NCBI GenBank assembly: GCA_016188425.1
Contig: JACPHX010000020.1
Coordinates: 1,821 to 65,820, forward strand
DNA length: 64,000 nucleotides
From: Candidatus Uhrbacteria bacterium
GTDB taxonomy: Bacteria > Patescibacteriota > Patescibacteriia > UBA9934 > GWF2-40-263
Reading direction: 5' to 3'
The position numbers and the translations under genes were made by a program. Shown here in pieces: positions 9,717 through 16,060 of this stretch. The notes beneath the pieces were generated by a model, which worked only from the letters and a program-made list of their open reading frames with translations, was not told the origin of the DNA and did not search any database. Positions within the stretch are counted from its first letter, which is position 1; each line of letters opens with the position of its first letter.

Positions 9717-10355
9717 CTATGAAACAGGACTGAGTCCGAGAATCGTGTAGGGGAATGTTGTTGAGTTGAGAAACATGACGAACTCGTCCGTCGCCGCATC
9801 AATATCATCGATGAAGCGGTTGTGCGTGATTTCTGACCGTCCACGTTTCCAAACATGTTCCTGAGGATTTTCCTCGGGTGCATATTTGGGAAAATGAATC
9901 ACTTCGATGTTGCCATCTTGCTTCACGAACTCCTGAACGACCGATCCTCGGTGCCAGCCAGCGTTGTCCCACAGAAGGACAATTTTTTGTTTTGGGTAGA
10001 TGGAACGAATTTGTTTGAGTGCGTCCGCCGTCACAACCATGTTTTGCTTGAGCGTTTTGATGGCATGTTCCTGTCCGGTCTTCAGATTGAGAAAGCCGTA
10101 GATTTGTATTCTTTGAATGCTTGAATTCGCCACGTCCACACGCACTGTCTCTCCTTGAGGCAGCCAGACTTTCTGCGTGGTCGTCTTGGTGGTGAGGATC
10201 ATCTCATCGGCAGCAAGGATGACGGTTCCTCGATCATCGAAATGCTTTTGAACCAATGGTCTTGTGGCCTTTCTCCATACCCGAACCTCTTTTTCGTTGT
10301 GCTCGTGGTATCGACGCTCTGGTTTGTGATAGCTGAAAGACGCTTTGCGAAACAC
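9717..10355 (-). mobile_element. IS630/Tc1-mariner-family transposase, DDE catalytic domain only (N-terminal HTH part missing)
   Basis: DDE triad contexts ILAADEMIL, LLWDNAGWHRG, HFPKYAPEENPQEHVWK. Only 212 aa where ~340 aa is typical for this family. Its start codon abuts or overlaps the 5' end of the RT reading frame. Confidence 0.75.
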
Positions 10356-11215
10356 AAGATACAGGGACGTTTTGGACTTGTATAAATGCTATTTCATAAT
10401 GTGATCACTATAAACGTCGTTACATCCACAAAGCGGCCGTACGCGACCGTGTCGTGCACCGCGCGATTCACCGAATACTGTACCCGTTCTTTGATCGACT
10501 GTTTATCTCAGACTCTTTCTCTTGCCGTGTCGGCAGGGGGACTCACAAGGCGCTCGATCGTTTTCATGAGTTTTCCTATCAAGCCAGCCGGAATCATCAC
10601 CGAACTTGCTGGGTGCTCAAATGCGATATCCGTCGATTTTTCGATTCGATCGATCACTCCGTACTACTGGATATCTTGAAGATGAGAATATCAGACTAAC
10701 GAATAGTCGATCTCCTGGCGACCATTATCGACAGCTACGAAATTACTCCAGGAAAAGGCCCCCCGCTTGGGAACCTTACAAGCCAGCTCTTTGCCAATGT
10801 CTATCTCAATGAACTCGACCAATTCATGAAGCACCGAATGAAGGCGCAAAAGTACATCCGTTACGCGGATGATTTTGTTATTTTTTCTGCGGAACGGGAT
10901 TATTTGCTTTGCATCTTGCCGCTCATCTCTGATTTTCTACGGAAGCGATTAATACTCGAATTGCATCCCAAGAAAGTATCGATAAACACGAGTGCCTCCG
11001 GCATCGATTTTCTGGGCTGGATCCATTTTCCCGACTATCGCATCCCCCGGCATGCCACCATACGCCGTATGTGGAAGCGCATCATCGACGATTTTTCCAA
11101 GGAAACCTTCGCCTCGTATCGGGGGCTTTTATCTCATGGAAATACCTTTGGCCTGCAAAATGATTTGTCTAATTTTACTTGGTTATTTCACGATACAAGG
11201 AAAAGTATTATTTGA
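10337..11215 (+). pseudogene. diversity-generating-retroelement (DGR)-type reverse transcriptase, N-terminally truncated, with one in-frame TAA
   Basis: A single reading frame (2) is continuous from about 10337 to 11215 except for a TAA at 10697..10699. It encodes RDRVVHRAIHRILYPFFDR, GRGTHKALDR, VLKCDIRRFFDSIDH, PLGNLTSQLFANVYLNELD (the DGR-RT hallmark [I/L]GxxxSQ, close to Bordetella bRT IGSLTSQLFANVY), YIRYADDFVIF (YxDD), LELHPKK and GIDFLGW. About 60 N-terminal residues are missing relative to bRT. Confidence 0.75.
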
Positions 11216-11808: not shown

Positions 11809-12912
11809 ATGGAACGAGCCATCCTCATCGATATCATTCCCCCGCGCATGCGGGTCCAAGACAGCCGCGATCGGCTGGATGAATTGGAGTCCTTGGTGCG
11901 CACGTATGGCGGGGTCGTGGTCGTGAAGACGCATCAGCGCCGCGCAACGCCCCATCCTCGGACGTTCATCGGGCCGGGGAAGATCGAGATGATCGCGCAG
12001 GAGGGGAAAGAGCTGAAGGCTACGATGCTCATCATCAACAACCAGCTCAAGCCTCGCCAGACGTACCTTATCGCCGAGGCGCTACGGCCGGCCGGCATCC
12101 GTGTCATGGACCGGGTCGACCTTATCCTCCACATTTTCCGCAAGCACGCCCAGACGGCCGAGGCGAGGTTGGAGATCGAATTGGCGGCGGTACGCCATAT
12201 GGGCCCGCGCATCTTCGGCATGGGCGCGGAGCTGTCTCGCCAAGGCGGGGGCATCGGAACGATGGGGATCGGGGAGACGAACACGGAGCGTATGAAACGC
12301 CACCTCAAGGAGCAGGAGCGGCAGATTCAGAAAGAGTTGGAGAAATACGAGCATGTCCGCGCGAACCATCAGAAGGGGCGCCGGCGTCGAGGATTGAGAA
12401 CAGTCGCGATCGTCGGGTACACGAACGCGGGGAAGACGACGTTACTGAACGCCCTGACTGGTCGGAAAGAATACGCCGCGGACAAACTGTTCGCGACGCT
12501 CGATACGCGCGTCGGGTCTTTGTATATCCCGTCGACGCACGAGACGCTTCTCGTCTCTGACACGATTGGCTTTATCAAAGACCTTCCACCGACATTGATC
12601 AACGCGTTCGCCTCGACCTTGTCGGAAACCGTGCAAGCGGATCTGCTTCTCCAAGTCGTCGACGCCGCGGATCCGCATCTTGCCGACCATCTCAGGGTTG
12701 TCGACGAGATCCTTGAGAAAATCGGCGCGTCTGGCATCCCAAGGTTCGTTGTCTTTAACAAGATGGACGCCGCGGGGAAACGGGTGAAGGCGAAGTTGCG
12801 GCGGCTCATTCCAACGGGAGCCGCCTCTGTGTTCGTGTCGGCAGAGAAGAAAGAAGGGATGGAGGGGTTGGTGGGAGAGATTGAGAGGAAGGTGAGGAGA
12901 GAAGCAAAATAA
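11809..12912 (+). CDS. hflX: GTPase HflX
   Basis: HflX N-domain followed by the G-domain VAIVGYTNAGKTTLLNALTG...DTIGFI...NKMD. Confidence 0.9.
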   Translation: MERAILIDIIPPRMRVQDSRDRLDELESLVRTYGGVVVVKTHQRRATPHPRTFIGPGKIEMIAQEGKELKATMLIINNQLKPRQTYLIAEALRPAGIRVMDRVDLILHIFRKHAQTAEARLEIELAAVRHMGPRIFGMGAELSRQGGGIGTMGIGETNTERMKRHLKEQERQIQKELEKYEHVRANHQKGRRRRGLRTVAIVGYTNAGKTTLLNALTGRKEYAADKLFATLDTRVGSLYIPSTHETLLVSDTIGFIKDLPPTLINAFASTLSETVQADLLLQVVDAADPHLADHLRVVDEILEKIGASGIPRFVVFNKMDAAGKRVKAKLRRLIPTGAASVFVSAEKKEGMEGLVGEIERKVRREAK

Positions 12913-13006
12913 TAATCGTGAATATAGTCAATTATTTATGTATATTCACGATTATCTTGACAATAATCGTGAATATGGCTATGATATAGTAAATATTCAC
13001 GATTAT
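12912..13006 (+). promoter_or_regulatory. fic promoter (TTGACA-17-TATGAT) interleaved with four 14-bp operator half-sites forming two palindromic operators
   Basis: ATAATCGTGAATAT at 12912..12925 and 12963..12976; its inverse ATATTCACGATTAT at 12942..12955 and 12993..13006; 30-bp half-site spacing within each pair. TTGACA at 12957..12962 and TATGAT at 12980..12985, 17-bp spacer. Confidence 0.55.
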
Positions 13007-13007
13007 T

Positions 13008-13895
13008 ATGCCACGCCAAAAAACATTCTATACCAGGATCGAAGCTTTGCGGAAACGCCATTTTTTGGCTTTACCAGGCAAAGAATCGCTTATCAGCCTC
13101 CTCAACGAGGCGGAAGTCTCGGAGCAGGTTTATAACTCGAATGCCATTGAAAACAGCACGCTTTCGCTTGAGGAGACAGAGAAGATTCTTCTCCAGGTAG
13201 ACCTGGACCGATTCATCAATGAACGGGAAATCTTTGAGGCGAAGAACCTTGCACGGGTCATGGAATACATGACGGCAAAAGCAAAGGATAAGGACCTGGA
13301 TAAAGAGACAATCCTGCTTTTGCACAAGATGCTCATCTTGAATATCCGTGACGAGATCGCTGGGCGTTTCCGTCGTGGGAATGAGTGGGTACGTGTTGGG
13401 AGCTATGTCGCCTCAAACCCCGCCGACGTCGAGTCCCTTATTGACCGCATGTTGGCTGACTATCAGGGGAATGCGGACCAGCACATCGTGAAACGCATCG
13501 CTTCGCTTCACCTGACGTTCGAACACATCCATCCCTTCGTGGATGGTAACGGCCGCATCGGTCGTGTGATGAACAACTACGCGCTTGTCCGTGGCGGGTA
13601 TGTCCCGATTACCGTGCGGTATGCGGACCGGGAAAAGTACTACCAAGCGTTCAAGGATTTTGATGCGAAGAATGATACGACGGTCATGGAAGAAATCGTT
13701 GGCACGGCGCTGGTCGAGAGCTACCACAAACGGCTGGCGTACTTGGAGGGGAAGAGCATCGTGCCGCTCATCGAATATTCCAAACGAGAAAAAATTGCTC
13801 TCTCGAACCTACTCAACAAGGCGAAGCGGCAAACGATAGAGGCGTTCCGGGAAAAGGGGGTTTGGAAGATCGGGGTGGGGAAGGAAAAAGAATGA
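13008..13895 (+). CDS. fic: Fic/Doc-family protein (AMPylase-type)
   Basis: Canonical Fic motif HPFVDGNGRIGR; ATG at 13008. Confidence 0.85.
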   Translation: MPRQKTFYTRIEALRKRHFLALPGKESLISLLNEAEVSEQVYNSNAIENSTLSLEETEKILLQVDLDRFINEREIFEAKNLARVMEYMTAKAKDKDLDKETILLLHKMLILNIRDEIAGRFRRGNEWVRVGSYVASNPADVESLIDRMLADYQGNADQHIVKRIASLHLTFEHIHPFVDGNGRIGRVMNNYALVRGGYVPITVRYADREKYYQAFKDFDAKNDTTVMEEIVGTALVESYHKRLAYLEGKSIVPLIEYSKREKIALSNLLNKAKRQTIEAFREKGVWKIGVGKEKE

Positions 13896-13899
13896 GCGT

Positions 13900-14801
13900 A
13901 TGAAAAATGAACGCACAAGTCGGGTGTATGGCTCCGTGGCGGTATTTCTGTCGGCGCTCTTCTTTGGAAGCTACGGCGTATGGTCCCGCCTGATCGGCTC
14001 GGGAATGGGGAATTTTTTCCAAGGGTGGACACGTGCACTCATCATCATCGTTTTGATCCTTCCGTTTGTCCTCTTGCGACGGGAATTCGTCCGGATCGGG
14101 AAACAGGACCGCCCATGGCTGGCGGTGTTCCTTGTGTGCACATCGATGACTCAGGCGCCGCTGTTCTATGCGTACAACCACATGGACATCGGGACCGCCT
14201 CGTTGCTGTTTTTCGTGTCGATGTTCCTCACGATGAACTTCGTCGGCATCGGGTTCTTTCGAGAGAAGATGACCACAGCGAAAGTCGTGGCGATCGGCGG
14301 AGCCATCGTTGGCATGTGCCTCGTGTTCTCATTTTCCACGATTTCGTTTTCGCTTCTGGCGGCGCTCATGGCCCTGGCAAACGGCGTGGCCAGCGGAGGA
14401 GAGATCGCCTTTTCCAAGAAGCTTTCCTCGGGCTATTCACCCCTCTACCTTCACTCCTTAGTTGGATCGTGATCCTTTTTACGAATGCCCTCATTTCGTT
14501 GCTGCTTCATGAGGTGCAAATCCTCCCCAGCTTCTCTGCTGTATGGTTCTGGCAACTCTGTTATAGCGTCGTTTCGCTCTTTGGGTTCTGGCTCGTCATC
14601 GCCGGTTTGAAACGTGTCGATGCTACGATTGGGGCGCTTATCGGCTTGTTGGAGATCGTCTTCGGAGTGGCATTCGGTATCCTCTTTTTTAGAGAGGACC
14701 TGACAGCGAGTGTGGTTGTTGGAGGGTTGCTGATCGTGGGAGCGGCGTCGTTGCCGAATGTGTGGGAAATGATAAAGGAGAAGAGAGTGCTTGAAACATA
14801 A
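13900..14801 (+). pseudogene. EamA/DMT-family transporter with a frameshift (frame 1 to frame 3 near 14440..14470)
   Basis: ORF 13900..14472 encodes the first EamA repeat; ORF 13980..14801 in another frame carries the second (…SLLSWIVILFTNALISLLLHEV…). The junction lies at a CCCC run (cacccctctacc). Confidence 0.6.
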
Positions 14802-14866
14802 AAAAGTTGTCTTTCAAGAACGTTGGTTCATTGACCTGGCTCGATTGAATGTTACTATCAGCATAT

Positions 14867-16060
14867 ATGCGTTTATTCTCCCTTCTCTCCCTTTTCTTTT
14901 TCCTCCCCTCCCTCGCCCAAGCCGCCACGGTTCCCATCGCGCAGCAGATGAAAGGATCCATCCTCCTCTCGGTCGAGCAGCATGGAGAAGCTTGGTATGT
15001 GTCACCCAAAGACGGGGAACGCACCTACCTTCAAGGACCTTTGGTCGCCTACCAGGTGTTGCGCCAGCAGGGAGTCGGCATTACCGATGCCGACTTGGCA
15101 CGCATCCCGCTCGCGGTGCCGCCGCTTGGGTCAGGTTCGGATGTTGATGGAGATGGGTTGGATATTGAATTTGAAAAAGCGGTCGGGCTTGATCCGATGG
15201 TCGCGGACACGGATGGGGACGGGGTGAACGACGGTGTCGAAATCGCCAAAGGGCTGGATCCGCTGCGAGCGAAGATGGCAGCGCCGTCTATTGCCTTTGC
15301 AATGAAGCACAAAGGGAAGATCTTTTTGCAGGTCCAGCATCGAGGAGAAGCGTGGTGGGTCAATCCCAAGGATTTCAAACGATATTATCTGGGGACGCCA
15401 GAGCTGACGTATGCGCTCCTTCGTTCGCAAGGGAAAGGGATCTCCCAGAAAGATTTGAATACGATCCCCGTAACAGGAAACCAAATCGATTGTCTGGGGT
15501 CGATGGATTGTTTCAAGGCGGCCGTCGACAACCGTCAGACAGCCGTGATGGATTACCAGGAATCAAGCCAGGAGAAAGGTGGGTTCGCCTACACGTTTGT
15601 CACATCATTATCTTTCTCGTCGGATGACGCGACCACGATGAGGTTATCGTCCGATGTGAAGGTTTACATCCCGGCGACCGAAGCGGAGATCCGGAAAAAT
15701 GGCGCGTACTCTGATGCGGAAGTAGCGGACACGCTCGCCCGTTTGCAAGCGAAGCGCGTCGTTGTCCTTGGGCGAGGCATGACCTGTACCACCAATCAGA
15801 CCGTGGTCGCACAGGCCATCCTCGACCACACGTATTTCACCCTCCCGCGAGCGATCCCCTATAACCTGCTGTCCTTTTGGTACACCAAGGATGCTGAGGG
15901 AAAAAATGTCGTACATGTATCTCCCGAAATCGACAAGACGAAAGTGAATACCGCCACCTGCCACCTCGTGGAAGATGGGAAGATTATTAAAAGCAAGACG
16001 TACGATGTGAATCGGGACATGGCGGAGTTTGAGGAACAGCAGAGATTATTGCAGCGATAG
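14867..16060 (+). CDS. secreted repeat protein with TSP3-like Ca-binding motifs
   Basis: Signal peptide MRLFSLLSLFFFLPSLAQA; two copies of a ~50-aa module (ILLSVEQHGEAWYVSPKDGERTYL / IFLQVQHRGEAWWVNPKDFKRYYL); DTDGDGVNDGVE motif. Confidence 0.55.
   Translation: MRLFSLLSLFFFLPSLAQAATVPIAQQMKGSILLSVEQHGEAWYVSPKDGERTYLQGPLVAYQVLRQQGVGITDADLARIPLAVPPLGSGSDVDGDGLDIEFEKAVGLDPMVADTDGDGVNDGVEIAKGLDPLRAKMAAPSIAFAMKHKGKIFLQVQHRGEAWWVNPKDFKRYYLGTPELTYALLRSQGKGISQKDLNTIPVTGNQIDCLGSMDCFKAAVDNRQTAVMDYQESSQEKGGFAYTFVTSLSFSSDDATTMRLSSDVKVYIPATEAEIRKNGAYSDAEVADTLARLQAKRVVVLGRGMTCTTNQTVVAQAILDHTYFTLPRAIPYNLLSFWYTKDAEGKNVVHVSPEIDKTKVNTATCHLVEDGKIIKSKTYDVNRDMAEFEEQQRLLQR

Follow-up and report, generated by a model that had tools for sequence, protein, structure and literature searches.

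A Fic gene with a putative autoregulatory operator over its promoter in Candidatus Uhrbacteria

The fic locus and its promoter

We analyzed a 64-kb stretch of a Candidatus Uhrbacteria genome (contig JACPHX010000020.1 of assembly GCA_016188425.1, hereafter the window), focusing on the gene fic and the 95 bp that precede it. Uhrbacteria are part of the Candidate Phyla Radiation (CPR). An earlier note on the sequence of the window had described a 14-bp motif, occurring four times in alternating orientation in front of fic, as two 44-bp palindromes interleaved with a sigma70-like promoter, and had proposed Fic itself as a possible regulator. The promoter region, the gene and its two neighbours comprise the following features, where L, R and S designate the first three half-sites.

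12912..12925, + strand: half-site L (ATAATCGTGAATAT), an exact copy with core CGTGAA at 12917-12922, centred around -73 relative to the predicted +1
12942..12955, - strand: half-site R, inverted, with core TTCACG at 12945-12950 and 1 nt between it and the -35 hexamer
12957..12962, + strand: -35 hexamer TTGACA (promoter scan)
12963..12976, + strand: half-site S, with core CGTGAA at 12968-12973, filling the 17-nt spacer between -35 and -10
12980..12985, + strand: -10 hexamer TATGAT (promoter scan)
12993..13006, - strand: fourth half-site, with core TTCACG at 12996-13001, over the predicted +1 and the 5' untranslated region (5'UTR) of about 15 nt
13008..13895, + strand: fic, encoding a 295-aa class II Fic protein (Pfam Fic, PF02661, 4e-21, 76 bits for a cutoff of 24)
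13137..13154, + strand: inhibitory-helix motif S44-N-A-I-E48-N49, which fits (S/T)xxxE(G/N) and is invariant in 28 aligned homologues
13530..13565, + strand: catalytic Fic motif H175-PFVDGNGRIG-R186, the canonical HPFVDGNGRIGR (HxFx(D/E)GNGRxxR)
11809-12912: hflX, encoding an HflX-type GTPase, upstream of fic
13900-14472, + strand: open reading frame (ORF) of the EamA family, with an EamA domain, starting 5 nt after fic

The region between 12900 and 13010 reads ...AAAATA-ATAATCGTGAATAT-agtcaattatttatgt-ATATTCACGATTAT-c-TTGACA-ATAATCGTGAATAT-ggc-TATGAT-atagtaa-ATATTCACGATTAT-t-ATG. It contains four exact copies of ATAATCGTGAATAT in alternating orientation, between 12912 and 13006, which pair as two perfect 44-bp palindromes with 14-bp arms separated by 16 bp. 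The second palindrome, made of S and the fourth half-site, spans the -10 and the +1. Both a pattern search and a repeat finder recovered these palindromes, and the earlier description is exact to the base. By chance, the two strands together (128 kb) should contain an exact 14-mer around 5e-4 times. Hence, four copies within 95 bp cannot be a chance occurrence. No further copy with up to two mismatches was found in the whole window, and the three other copies with three mismatches are as many as expected by chance (mean of 3.1).

The promoter scan confirmed that the half-sites are interleaved with a sigma70-like promoter, TTGACA-17-TATGAT, which matches the consensus at 11 of 12 positions. Transcription is predicted to start around position 12992, and a single nucleotide separates the fourth half-site from the fic ATG at 13008. 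The resulting leader (ATATTCACGATTATT-ATG) has no Shine-Dalgarno-like sequence. On the upstream side, half-site L shares one base, the last, with the hflX stop codon (12910-12912). No ORF separates hflX from fic in the window, and there is no space for a second regulatory gene. With hflX ending at 12912 and the EamA gene starting just after fic, the earlier observation that no small regulator is encoded beside fic also stands.

The Fic protein of the window is 100% identical to the NCBI entry 'Fic family protein [Candidatus Uhrbacteria bacterium]'. In an alignment of 28 homologues, the H, F, D, G, N, G, R, G and R of the catalytic motif are invariant. The nearest solved structures are those of human FICD, Caenorhabditis elegans Fic-1, CdFic, and BtFic; the match to human FICD has an E-value of 2e-26 by profile, and a Foldseek probability of 1.0 with a template modelling (TM) score of 0.5-0.6. 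The inhibitory helix that, according to the earlier note, would make Fic self-regulated is present. Since this (S/T)xxxE(G/N) helix lies at the N-terminus of Fic, the protein is, as judged from its motifs, a class II enzyme with the inhibitory helix on its own chain, and needs no antitoxin gene.

Conservation of the sites and of a C-terminal domain

To place the promoter region in a broader context, we scanned one genome per species and found at least 588 relatives of Fic. The best 80 (60-66% identity) were fetched with their flanking DNA. Their hosts include many CPR lineages, Nitrospira, Planctomycetota, Spirochaetes, Proteobacteria, Bacteroidota, and Omnitrophota, and some of the loci are on contigs of 0.4 to 2.4 Mb. 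Nearly all of these loci show the pattern aaaaCCGTGAAAA-N~16-TTTTCACGattat-gTTGACA-aaaCCGTGAAaa-n-TATAAT upstream of the gene. Layout counts were taken over 115 non-identical homologous proteins and their loci. The full arrangement, i.e., L, 28-29 bp, R, the -35, S (22-23 bp after R), and the -10, is present in 102 of them, with the core of R ending 6 nt before the TTG of the -35 in most loci. Among these 102 promoters, the -35 is TTGACA in 58 and the -10 is TATAAT or TATACT in 64, with a spacer of 16-17 nt. The sequences between half-sites vary across the family. The 16-nt spacer between L and R nevertheless has a run of at least four T or A in 77 of the 102 loci (at least five T in 45), which suggests that this DNA may be intrinsically bent or easily bent. 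The spacer between L and R in the window is AT-rich and has no long T-tract.

The sites are tightly linked to fic. In the 80 loci, the core CGTGAA/TTCACG reaches 13.0 per kb over the 200 bp that precede fic, against 0.36 per kb elsewhere, which is a 36-fold enrichment relative to the remaining 465 kb of flanking DNA. Paired inverted cores are essentially confined to the DNA upstream of fic. Hence, the repeats are not scattered over many unrelated loci, as the earlier note would have expected of generic repeat DNA. The upstream genes vary in identity, distance, and orientation across the family. The most frequent Pfam family accounts for only four of the 70 upstream neighbours, and downstream for only two of 75. 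That upstream family is itself Fic, i.e., the upstream neighbour is another Fic-domain gene at four loci. As the flanking genes are unrelated, fic is the only gene travelling with the sites. In particular, we found no conserved adjacent antitoxin gene across the 80 loci, in contrast to what defines type II toxin-antitoxin modules.

The number of half-sites differs between members of the family. Most have three, and in 71 of the 102 homologues the ATG is 6-9 nt after the -10, so that these mRNAs are probably leaderless. The fourth half-site is absent from this leaderless majority. The closest relatives of the window locus (L081, L082, L083, and L085, with 72-80% protein identity) have a 5'UTR of about 15 nt and a fourth half-site exactly 28 bp after S, ending in ATTATT-ATG. 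They sit in differing genomic contexts, with neighbours including MurJ/AlaRS, DUF2914/TrmB, DUF2200/hemerythrin, and DUF3592/adenosine deaminase. In one other subclade with a long 5'UTR (L028, L057, L065, and L072), a degenerate TTCACT follows S at an equal distance. Since the spacing between S and the fourth site equals that between L and R, the binding unit would be a convergent palindrome with 28-29 bp between core starts. By this comparison of sites, the subclade of the window, and in a degenerate form one other, has completed a second palindromic unit over the -10 and the +1. Some loci have five to nine half-sites (L027, L037, L061, L013, L025, and L004/L005), apparently by tandem duplication of the operator or of the promoter-operator unit.

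The protein carries a feature that was absent from the earlier note. In the alignment of 28 homologues, the last 45 residues or so are nearly as conserved as the active site, and are the most conserved non-catalytic part of the protein, with the motif L.EY.K..K.S-H-S-N-L-I-N-K-A-x-R-Q-T-I-E-A-F-x-E-K-G-x-W-K-I-G. In the structural models, this part folds as a winged helix-turn-helix (HTH).

13755..13877, + strand: C-terminal winged HTH, residues 250-290 (AlphaFold2, predicted local distance difference test of about 90)
13800-13826, + strand: predicted recognition helix, residues 265-273 (AlphaFold2)
13803-13805, + strand: specificity-linked residue S266, which covaries with the half-site core

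The assignment of secondary structure by DSSP gave a strand (250-253), two helices (254-261 and 265-273), and a two-strand wing (279-282 and 285-290). This is the strand-helix-helix-beta-hairpin topology of the MerR/excisionase-like (BldC-type) winged HTH. As the Foldseek search with the full-length model was dominated by the Fic domain and silent on the C-terminus, residues 247-295 were modelled separately, which gave the same topology. With this isolated domain, the top matches were BldC-DNA complexes (TM score of 0.64-0.68, root-mean-square deviation of 1.6-2.2 Å, probability of 0.93-0.99, E = 0.13, identity of 11-12%), and DNA-bound RacA was also among the best. A profile of the domain searched against 1.84 billion representative sequences retrieved around 219 cluster representatives. 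The best 150 of these do not exceed 308 aa, all end in the domain, and appear to be members or fragments of the same family of about 290 aa. None of these 150 shows a fusion of the domain to another enzyme. From these searches, the winged HTH appears specific to this family of Fic proteins.

Variants of the core bear on whether Fic itself reads the half-sites. Among the loci retrieved by protein similarity, four have variant cores: CGTTAA is found in every half-site of L027, L038, and L070, and L037 has four CGTGAC and two CGTGAA. The proteins of these four loci all deviate in S264-H265-S266-N267, the N-terminus of the predicted recognition helix. A search of metagenomes for the CGTTAA architecture, based only on DNA and covering this one core variant (G-to-T), gave 98 matches, of which 95 were analyzed. 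An ORF with the Fic motif is immediately downstream in 48 of the 95, and about a dozen more have the same promoter cut by the end of the contig. The pooled counts from protein similarity and metagenomes are:

CGTGAA core: Ser266 in 70, another residue in 4
CGTTAA core: Ser266 in 7, another residue in 30 (Ala in 24)

The association between core and residue 266 is strong (Fisher's exact test, 3e-16, on counts that ignore phylogeny). To locate the changes, we made a neighbour-joining tree from the non-HTH part of the protein only. The combination of CGTTAA and Ala occurs in at least four to five separate lineages of this tree: a large SHAN clade, a VHAN clade beside L075, L128 beside L059/L066, L105, and L156. 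There are also single switches in L070, L118, and L037, each next to a sister with SHSN and CGTGAA. For proteins at least 75% identical to each other, a difference at residue 266 is seen in 2% of the pairs with the same core and in 73% of those with different cores. We infer that the matched changes, Ser to Ala and G to T, fit a direct base read-out by the first turn of the recognition helix. Sites that occur only with fic, together with the covariation between helix and core, provide strong, if indirect, comparative support for the binding of Fic to the repeat. Hence, the proposal that Fic is its own regulator is now strongly supported in silico, by the predicted winged HTH, the linkage of the sites to fic, and the covariation of residue 266.

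Proposed module, related systems and alternatives

We propose that these 95 bp serve as operator and promoter in a self-contained autoregulatory Fic module of one gene, to which we give a probability of roughly three in four. Sequence and comparison directly give the sites, their fixed register with the promoter, their exclusive linkage to fic, the DNA-binding fold, and the covariation of residue 266 with the core, whereas dimer binding, repression rather than activation, and any coupling of DNA binding to enzyme activity are inferred. The catalytic site HPFVDGNGRIGR would be restrained by the protein's own inhibitory glutamate, E48, and Fic would act as a dimer, by analogy with other class II Fic proteins. 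The two HTH domains of the dimer would contact the two inverted CGTGAA half-sites of a 44-bp palindrome, whose centres are 28 bp apart. In the window, palindrome 1 abuts the -35 from upstream (centre around -59) and palindrome 2 spans the spacer, the -10, and the +1 (centre around -8). Two dimers could thus occupy the DNA from around -80 to around +15 and keep RNA polymerase off a near-consensus promoter that would otherwise be constitutive and strong. The expected outcome is a tight negative autoregulation holding Fic at a low, fixed level. In the majority of the family, with three sites, the orphan S may be taken by one subunit of a second dimer stabilised by the first. The T/A runs in the spacers between L and R hint at a contribution of DNA bending.

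The best precedent is CccR of Yersinia pseudotuberculosis, a class II Fic protein with a C-terminal HTH that represses its own promoter as a dimer (PMC9755527). Its operator, AGATAATCAT-N26-ATGATAATCT, lies near the -35 and -10 and was characterized by electrophoretic mobility shift assays, footprinting, isothermal titration calorimetry, and reporter assays (PMC9755527). The window family resembles CccR in having no antitoxin gene, a DNA-binding domain at the C-terminal side of the Fic domain (predicted, and of a different subtype), and a widely spaced inverted repeat over its own -35 and -10, conserved in 102 of the 115 loci. Yet, CccR has 380 aa and a SoFic-type HTH of about 100 aa, whereas the window Fic has 295 aa and a BldC/excisionase-like winged HTH of about 45 aa. 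The operator of CccR is a single palindrome with 10-bp arms and N26, whereas here the arms have 14 bp, are separated by N16, and form three to four half-sites in a fixed register with the promoter. CccR is also a secreted effector of the type VI secretion system that targets FtsZ (PMC9755527), whereas neither a secretion context nor a target is known for the window family. We found no homology to CccR or SoFic in the C-terminal part, since the profile matches to PDB entries 7xux, 3eqx, and 8cil cover the Fic domain only; 7xux, which is probably CccR, aligns only over residues 77-220 of the window Fic. From sequence comparison, the window family thus seems to work like CccR from outside that lineage, with a different DNA-binding domain and operator layout.

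Other Fic proteins share parts of this organization. In CbFic2 of Coxiella burnetii, DNA binding by a C-terminal HTH controls dimerisation and turns the AMPylase into a deAMPylase; this interaction with DNA is largely nonspecific, and no operator was described (PMC10628234). CbFic2 and the SoFic-type proteins (PDB 8cil and 3eqx) are, like the window Fic, class II proteins with a C-terminal DNA-binding or regulatory domain, but they have about 370 aa, an N-terminal DUF4172/Fic_N, and a different C-terminal domain. The window Fic is not a member of SoFic, given its score of 39 bits for a cutoff of 550 in the NCBIfam equivalog. SoFic is a Fic protein that acts against phages; its E. coli version, EcSofic, is followed by a small antitoxin gene, AS1 (PMC12249575), that has no counterpart at the fic of the window. 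Human FICD/HYPE and CdFic have the same inhibitory glutamate and Fic motif. However, FICD has a membrane anchor and TPR repeats instead of a DNA-binding domain, and neither an operator nor autoregulation at the level of DNA. The type II Fic/Doc modules (VbhT-VbhA, FicT-FicA, and Phd-Doc) are also similar, in that an inhibitory helix silences an enzyme with the Fic fold and transcription is autorepressed at palindromic operators over the promoter, a layout like that of the window. They differ in having two genes, with the antitoxin supplying both the inhibitory helix and the DNA-binding domain, which are here in the enzyme itself. As for the DNA-binding domain, BldC and RacA (PDB 6ama, 6amk; 5i44) have the same strand-helix-helix-hairpin fold of about 45-55 residues, with one DNA half-site per domain. 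BldC binds head-to-tail on direct repeats. It is also a stand-alone protein, whereas the domain of the window Fic is fused to an enzyme and its sites are inverted and 28 bp apart.

Several observations weigh against the proposed autoregulatory module. The C-terminal 54 aa and a consensus 42-mer had no Pfam match at E-values up to 10, which is why the domain was identified by structure, and so short a domain gives weak Foldseek E-values. In the full-length AlphaFold2 model, confidence is low at residues 35-76, which include the inhibitory helix. The spacing of 28 bp between centres amounts to around 2.7 helical turns and would require well-separated HTH domains or DNA bending. With one dimer per palindrome, the three half-sites of most members leave S unpaired. 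The test of association between core and residue 266 is open to the effect of kinship among loci, and the seven CGTTAA loci that keep Ser266 imply that this residue is not the sole determinant of specificity.

The same observations can be read in other ways. Fic might bind the sites mainly for the allosteric control of the enzyme, instead of or besides repressing transcription: dimers bound to the operator would be inactive or deAMPylating, free monomers would AMPylate, and the gene's own DNA would play the part of an 'antitoxin' or of a sensor. CbFic2 behaves in this way, being an AMPylating monomer that becomes a deAMPylating dimer when its C-terminal HTH binds DNA, its authors reinterpret CccR likewise, and FICD, the closest relative of the catalytic domain, is described as a switch between AMPylating monomer and deAMPylating dimer (PMC10628234). 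The lack of an antitoxin gene in the module is also compatible with this idea. Yet, one or two copies of the operator per chromosome could titrate only a few protein molecules, and the half-sites are exactly on the elements of the promoter (the -35 flank, the spacer, and the +1), as predicted by transcriptional control. We consider this allosteric reading, though compatible with the data, unlikely. It is harder still to argue that Fic activates its promoter, and we regard this as quite improbable. The upstream palindrome is centred around -59, where activators can act, and the DNA-binding domain resembles that of MerR-family regulators, which bind within promoter spacers. But sites in the spacer and at the +1 are classical positions of repressors, CccR, the one characterized analogue, is a repressor, and a near-consensus promoter with an optimal spacer of 16-17 nt across the family needs neither an activator nor untwisting of the MerR type.

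Many promoters are controlled by regulators encoded elsewhere, and the binding of Fic is itself predicted, so a separate transcription factor of the host could recognise the half-sites. We find this very improbable, because the sites accompany fic across unrelated phyla with no conserved neighbour gene, because the core covaries with a residue of the recognition helix of Fic in several independent lineages, and because there is no other copy of the sites in the window, nor in the flanks of the 80 loci. The palindromes could finally be hairpins in RNA, as a terminator or stability element of hflX or a structure of the 5'UTR, or else generic repeat or mobile-element DNA. The region does fold strongly (-37 kcal/mol, z = -6.8) and the first arm touches the hflX stop codon. 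However, this fold is uninformative because the four arms are identical; in its minimum-energy form, L is joined to the fourth site, and R to S. All but one of the arms precede the predicted transcription start, neither hairpin is followed by a T-run, and no terminator was called there. Across the family, S usually has no downstream partner and the upstream genes differ. With no other copies in the window to suggest a generic repeat either, we regard these readings as effectively refuted.

Neighbouring DNA, mobility and significance

The family keeps 60-66% identity across very distant phyla, and its promoter is carried along while the neighbours are unrelated. Taken together, these comparisons imply the frequent horizontal transfer of a single-gene cassette. 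The family is absent from the viral contigs of IMG/VR, where the only relatives have at most 35% identity and no C-terminal domain, and from the plasmids of PLSDB, where the only relatives are below 36% identity. Carriage by phages or plasmids was thus rejected, these databases holding only distant relatives. We also considered a type I restriction-modification context, as an HsdS-like gene seemed to end just upstream of fic at several loci, and rejected it as a rule because no neighbour family exceeds 4 of 70. A minority of loci, in contrast to most, are beside genes for DNA methylases, Shedu SduA_C, RhuM, GIY-YIG, or PIF1 helicase, which hints at an association with defence islands in some hosts. 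In PADLOC, the best match of the protein is the phage-defence candidate PDC-S04 (3.6e-35), followed by SoFic (1.7e-28), both over the Fic domain only.

The DNA around fic in the window shows further features. Downstream, another ORF in a different frame (13980-14801) overlaps the EamA ORF and is apparently a second membrane repeat. The EamA transporter (13900-14801, + strand) looks split, which could reflect a frameshift, a pseudogene, or an assembly error. It is followed at 14849-16060 (+ strand) by a gene whose product, of 403 aa, has a hydrophobic, signal-like segment at its N-terminus and a bacterial thrombospondin type 3 (TSP3) repeat. A TSP_3/PKD protein is also encoded upstream of fic at L081, beyond the MurJ gene. 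On the other side, around 2.5 kb upstream of the fic module, an ORF at 9717-10355 (- strand) has a DDE_3 transposase domain (IS630/Tc1-like, 1.4e-24) and may be an insertion sequence. At 10454-10699 and 10826-11215 (+ strand), two ORFs that differ in frame match the N- and C-terminal parts of RVT_1. The pair resembles a reverse-transcriptase gene of the group II intron or retron type that has decayed or been frameshifted.

One could take the proposed module further and view it as a horizontally mobile cassette in which a single gene and its operator act as toxin, antitoxin, and repressor, with the operator DNA as an inhibitory ligand. We see this as a long shot. When parked on the promoter of their own gene, Fic dimers would be silent in transcription and also enzymatically inactive or deAMPylating. 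The loss, damage, or dilution of the DNA, or a trigger dissociating the dimers, such as phage attack or a new host, would then release monomers competent for AMPylation. The change from Ser266/G to Ala266/T would be a simple portable code, by which paralogous cassettes could coexist in one cell without cross-talk.

Fic enzymes, which AMPylate proteins, are widespread. The autoregulatory module proposed here bears on a poorly understood question, namely how class II Fic enzymes that lack an antitoxin are restrained and switched, for which CccR is the one characterized case of an autorepressing Fic-HTH protein. The family is large, very uniform, and found across phyla, and its promoter, operator, enzyme, and DNA-binding domain make up a single portable unit. 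Its comparison offers a putative recognition rule of one residue and one base, Ser266 with G and Ala266 with T. With a promoter close to the sigma70 consensus and a small protein, the module as a whole should be amenable to tests in Escherichia coli. As its catalytic domain is close to that of human FICD, it may become a tractable model for the coupling between DNA binding, dimerisation, and AMPylation.

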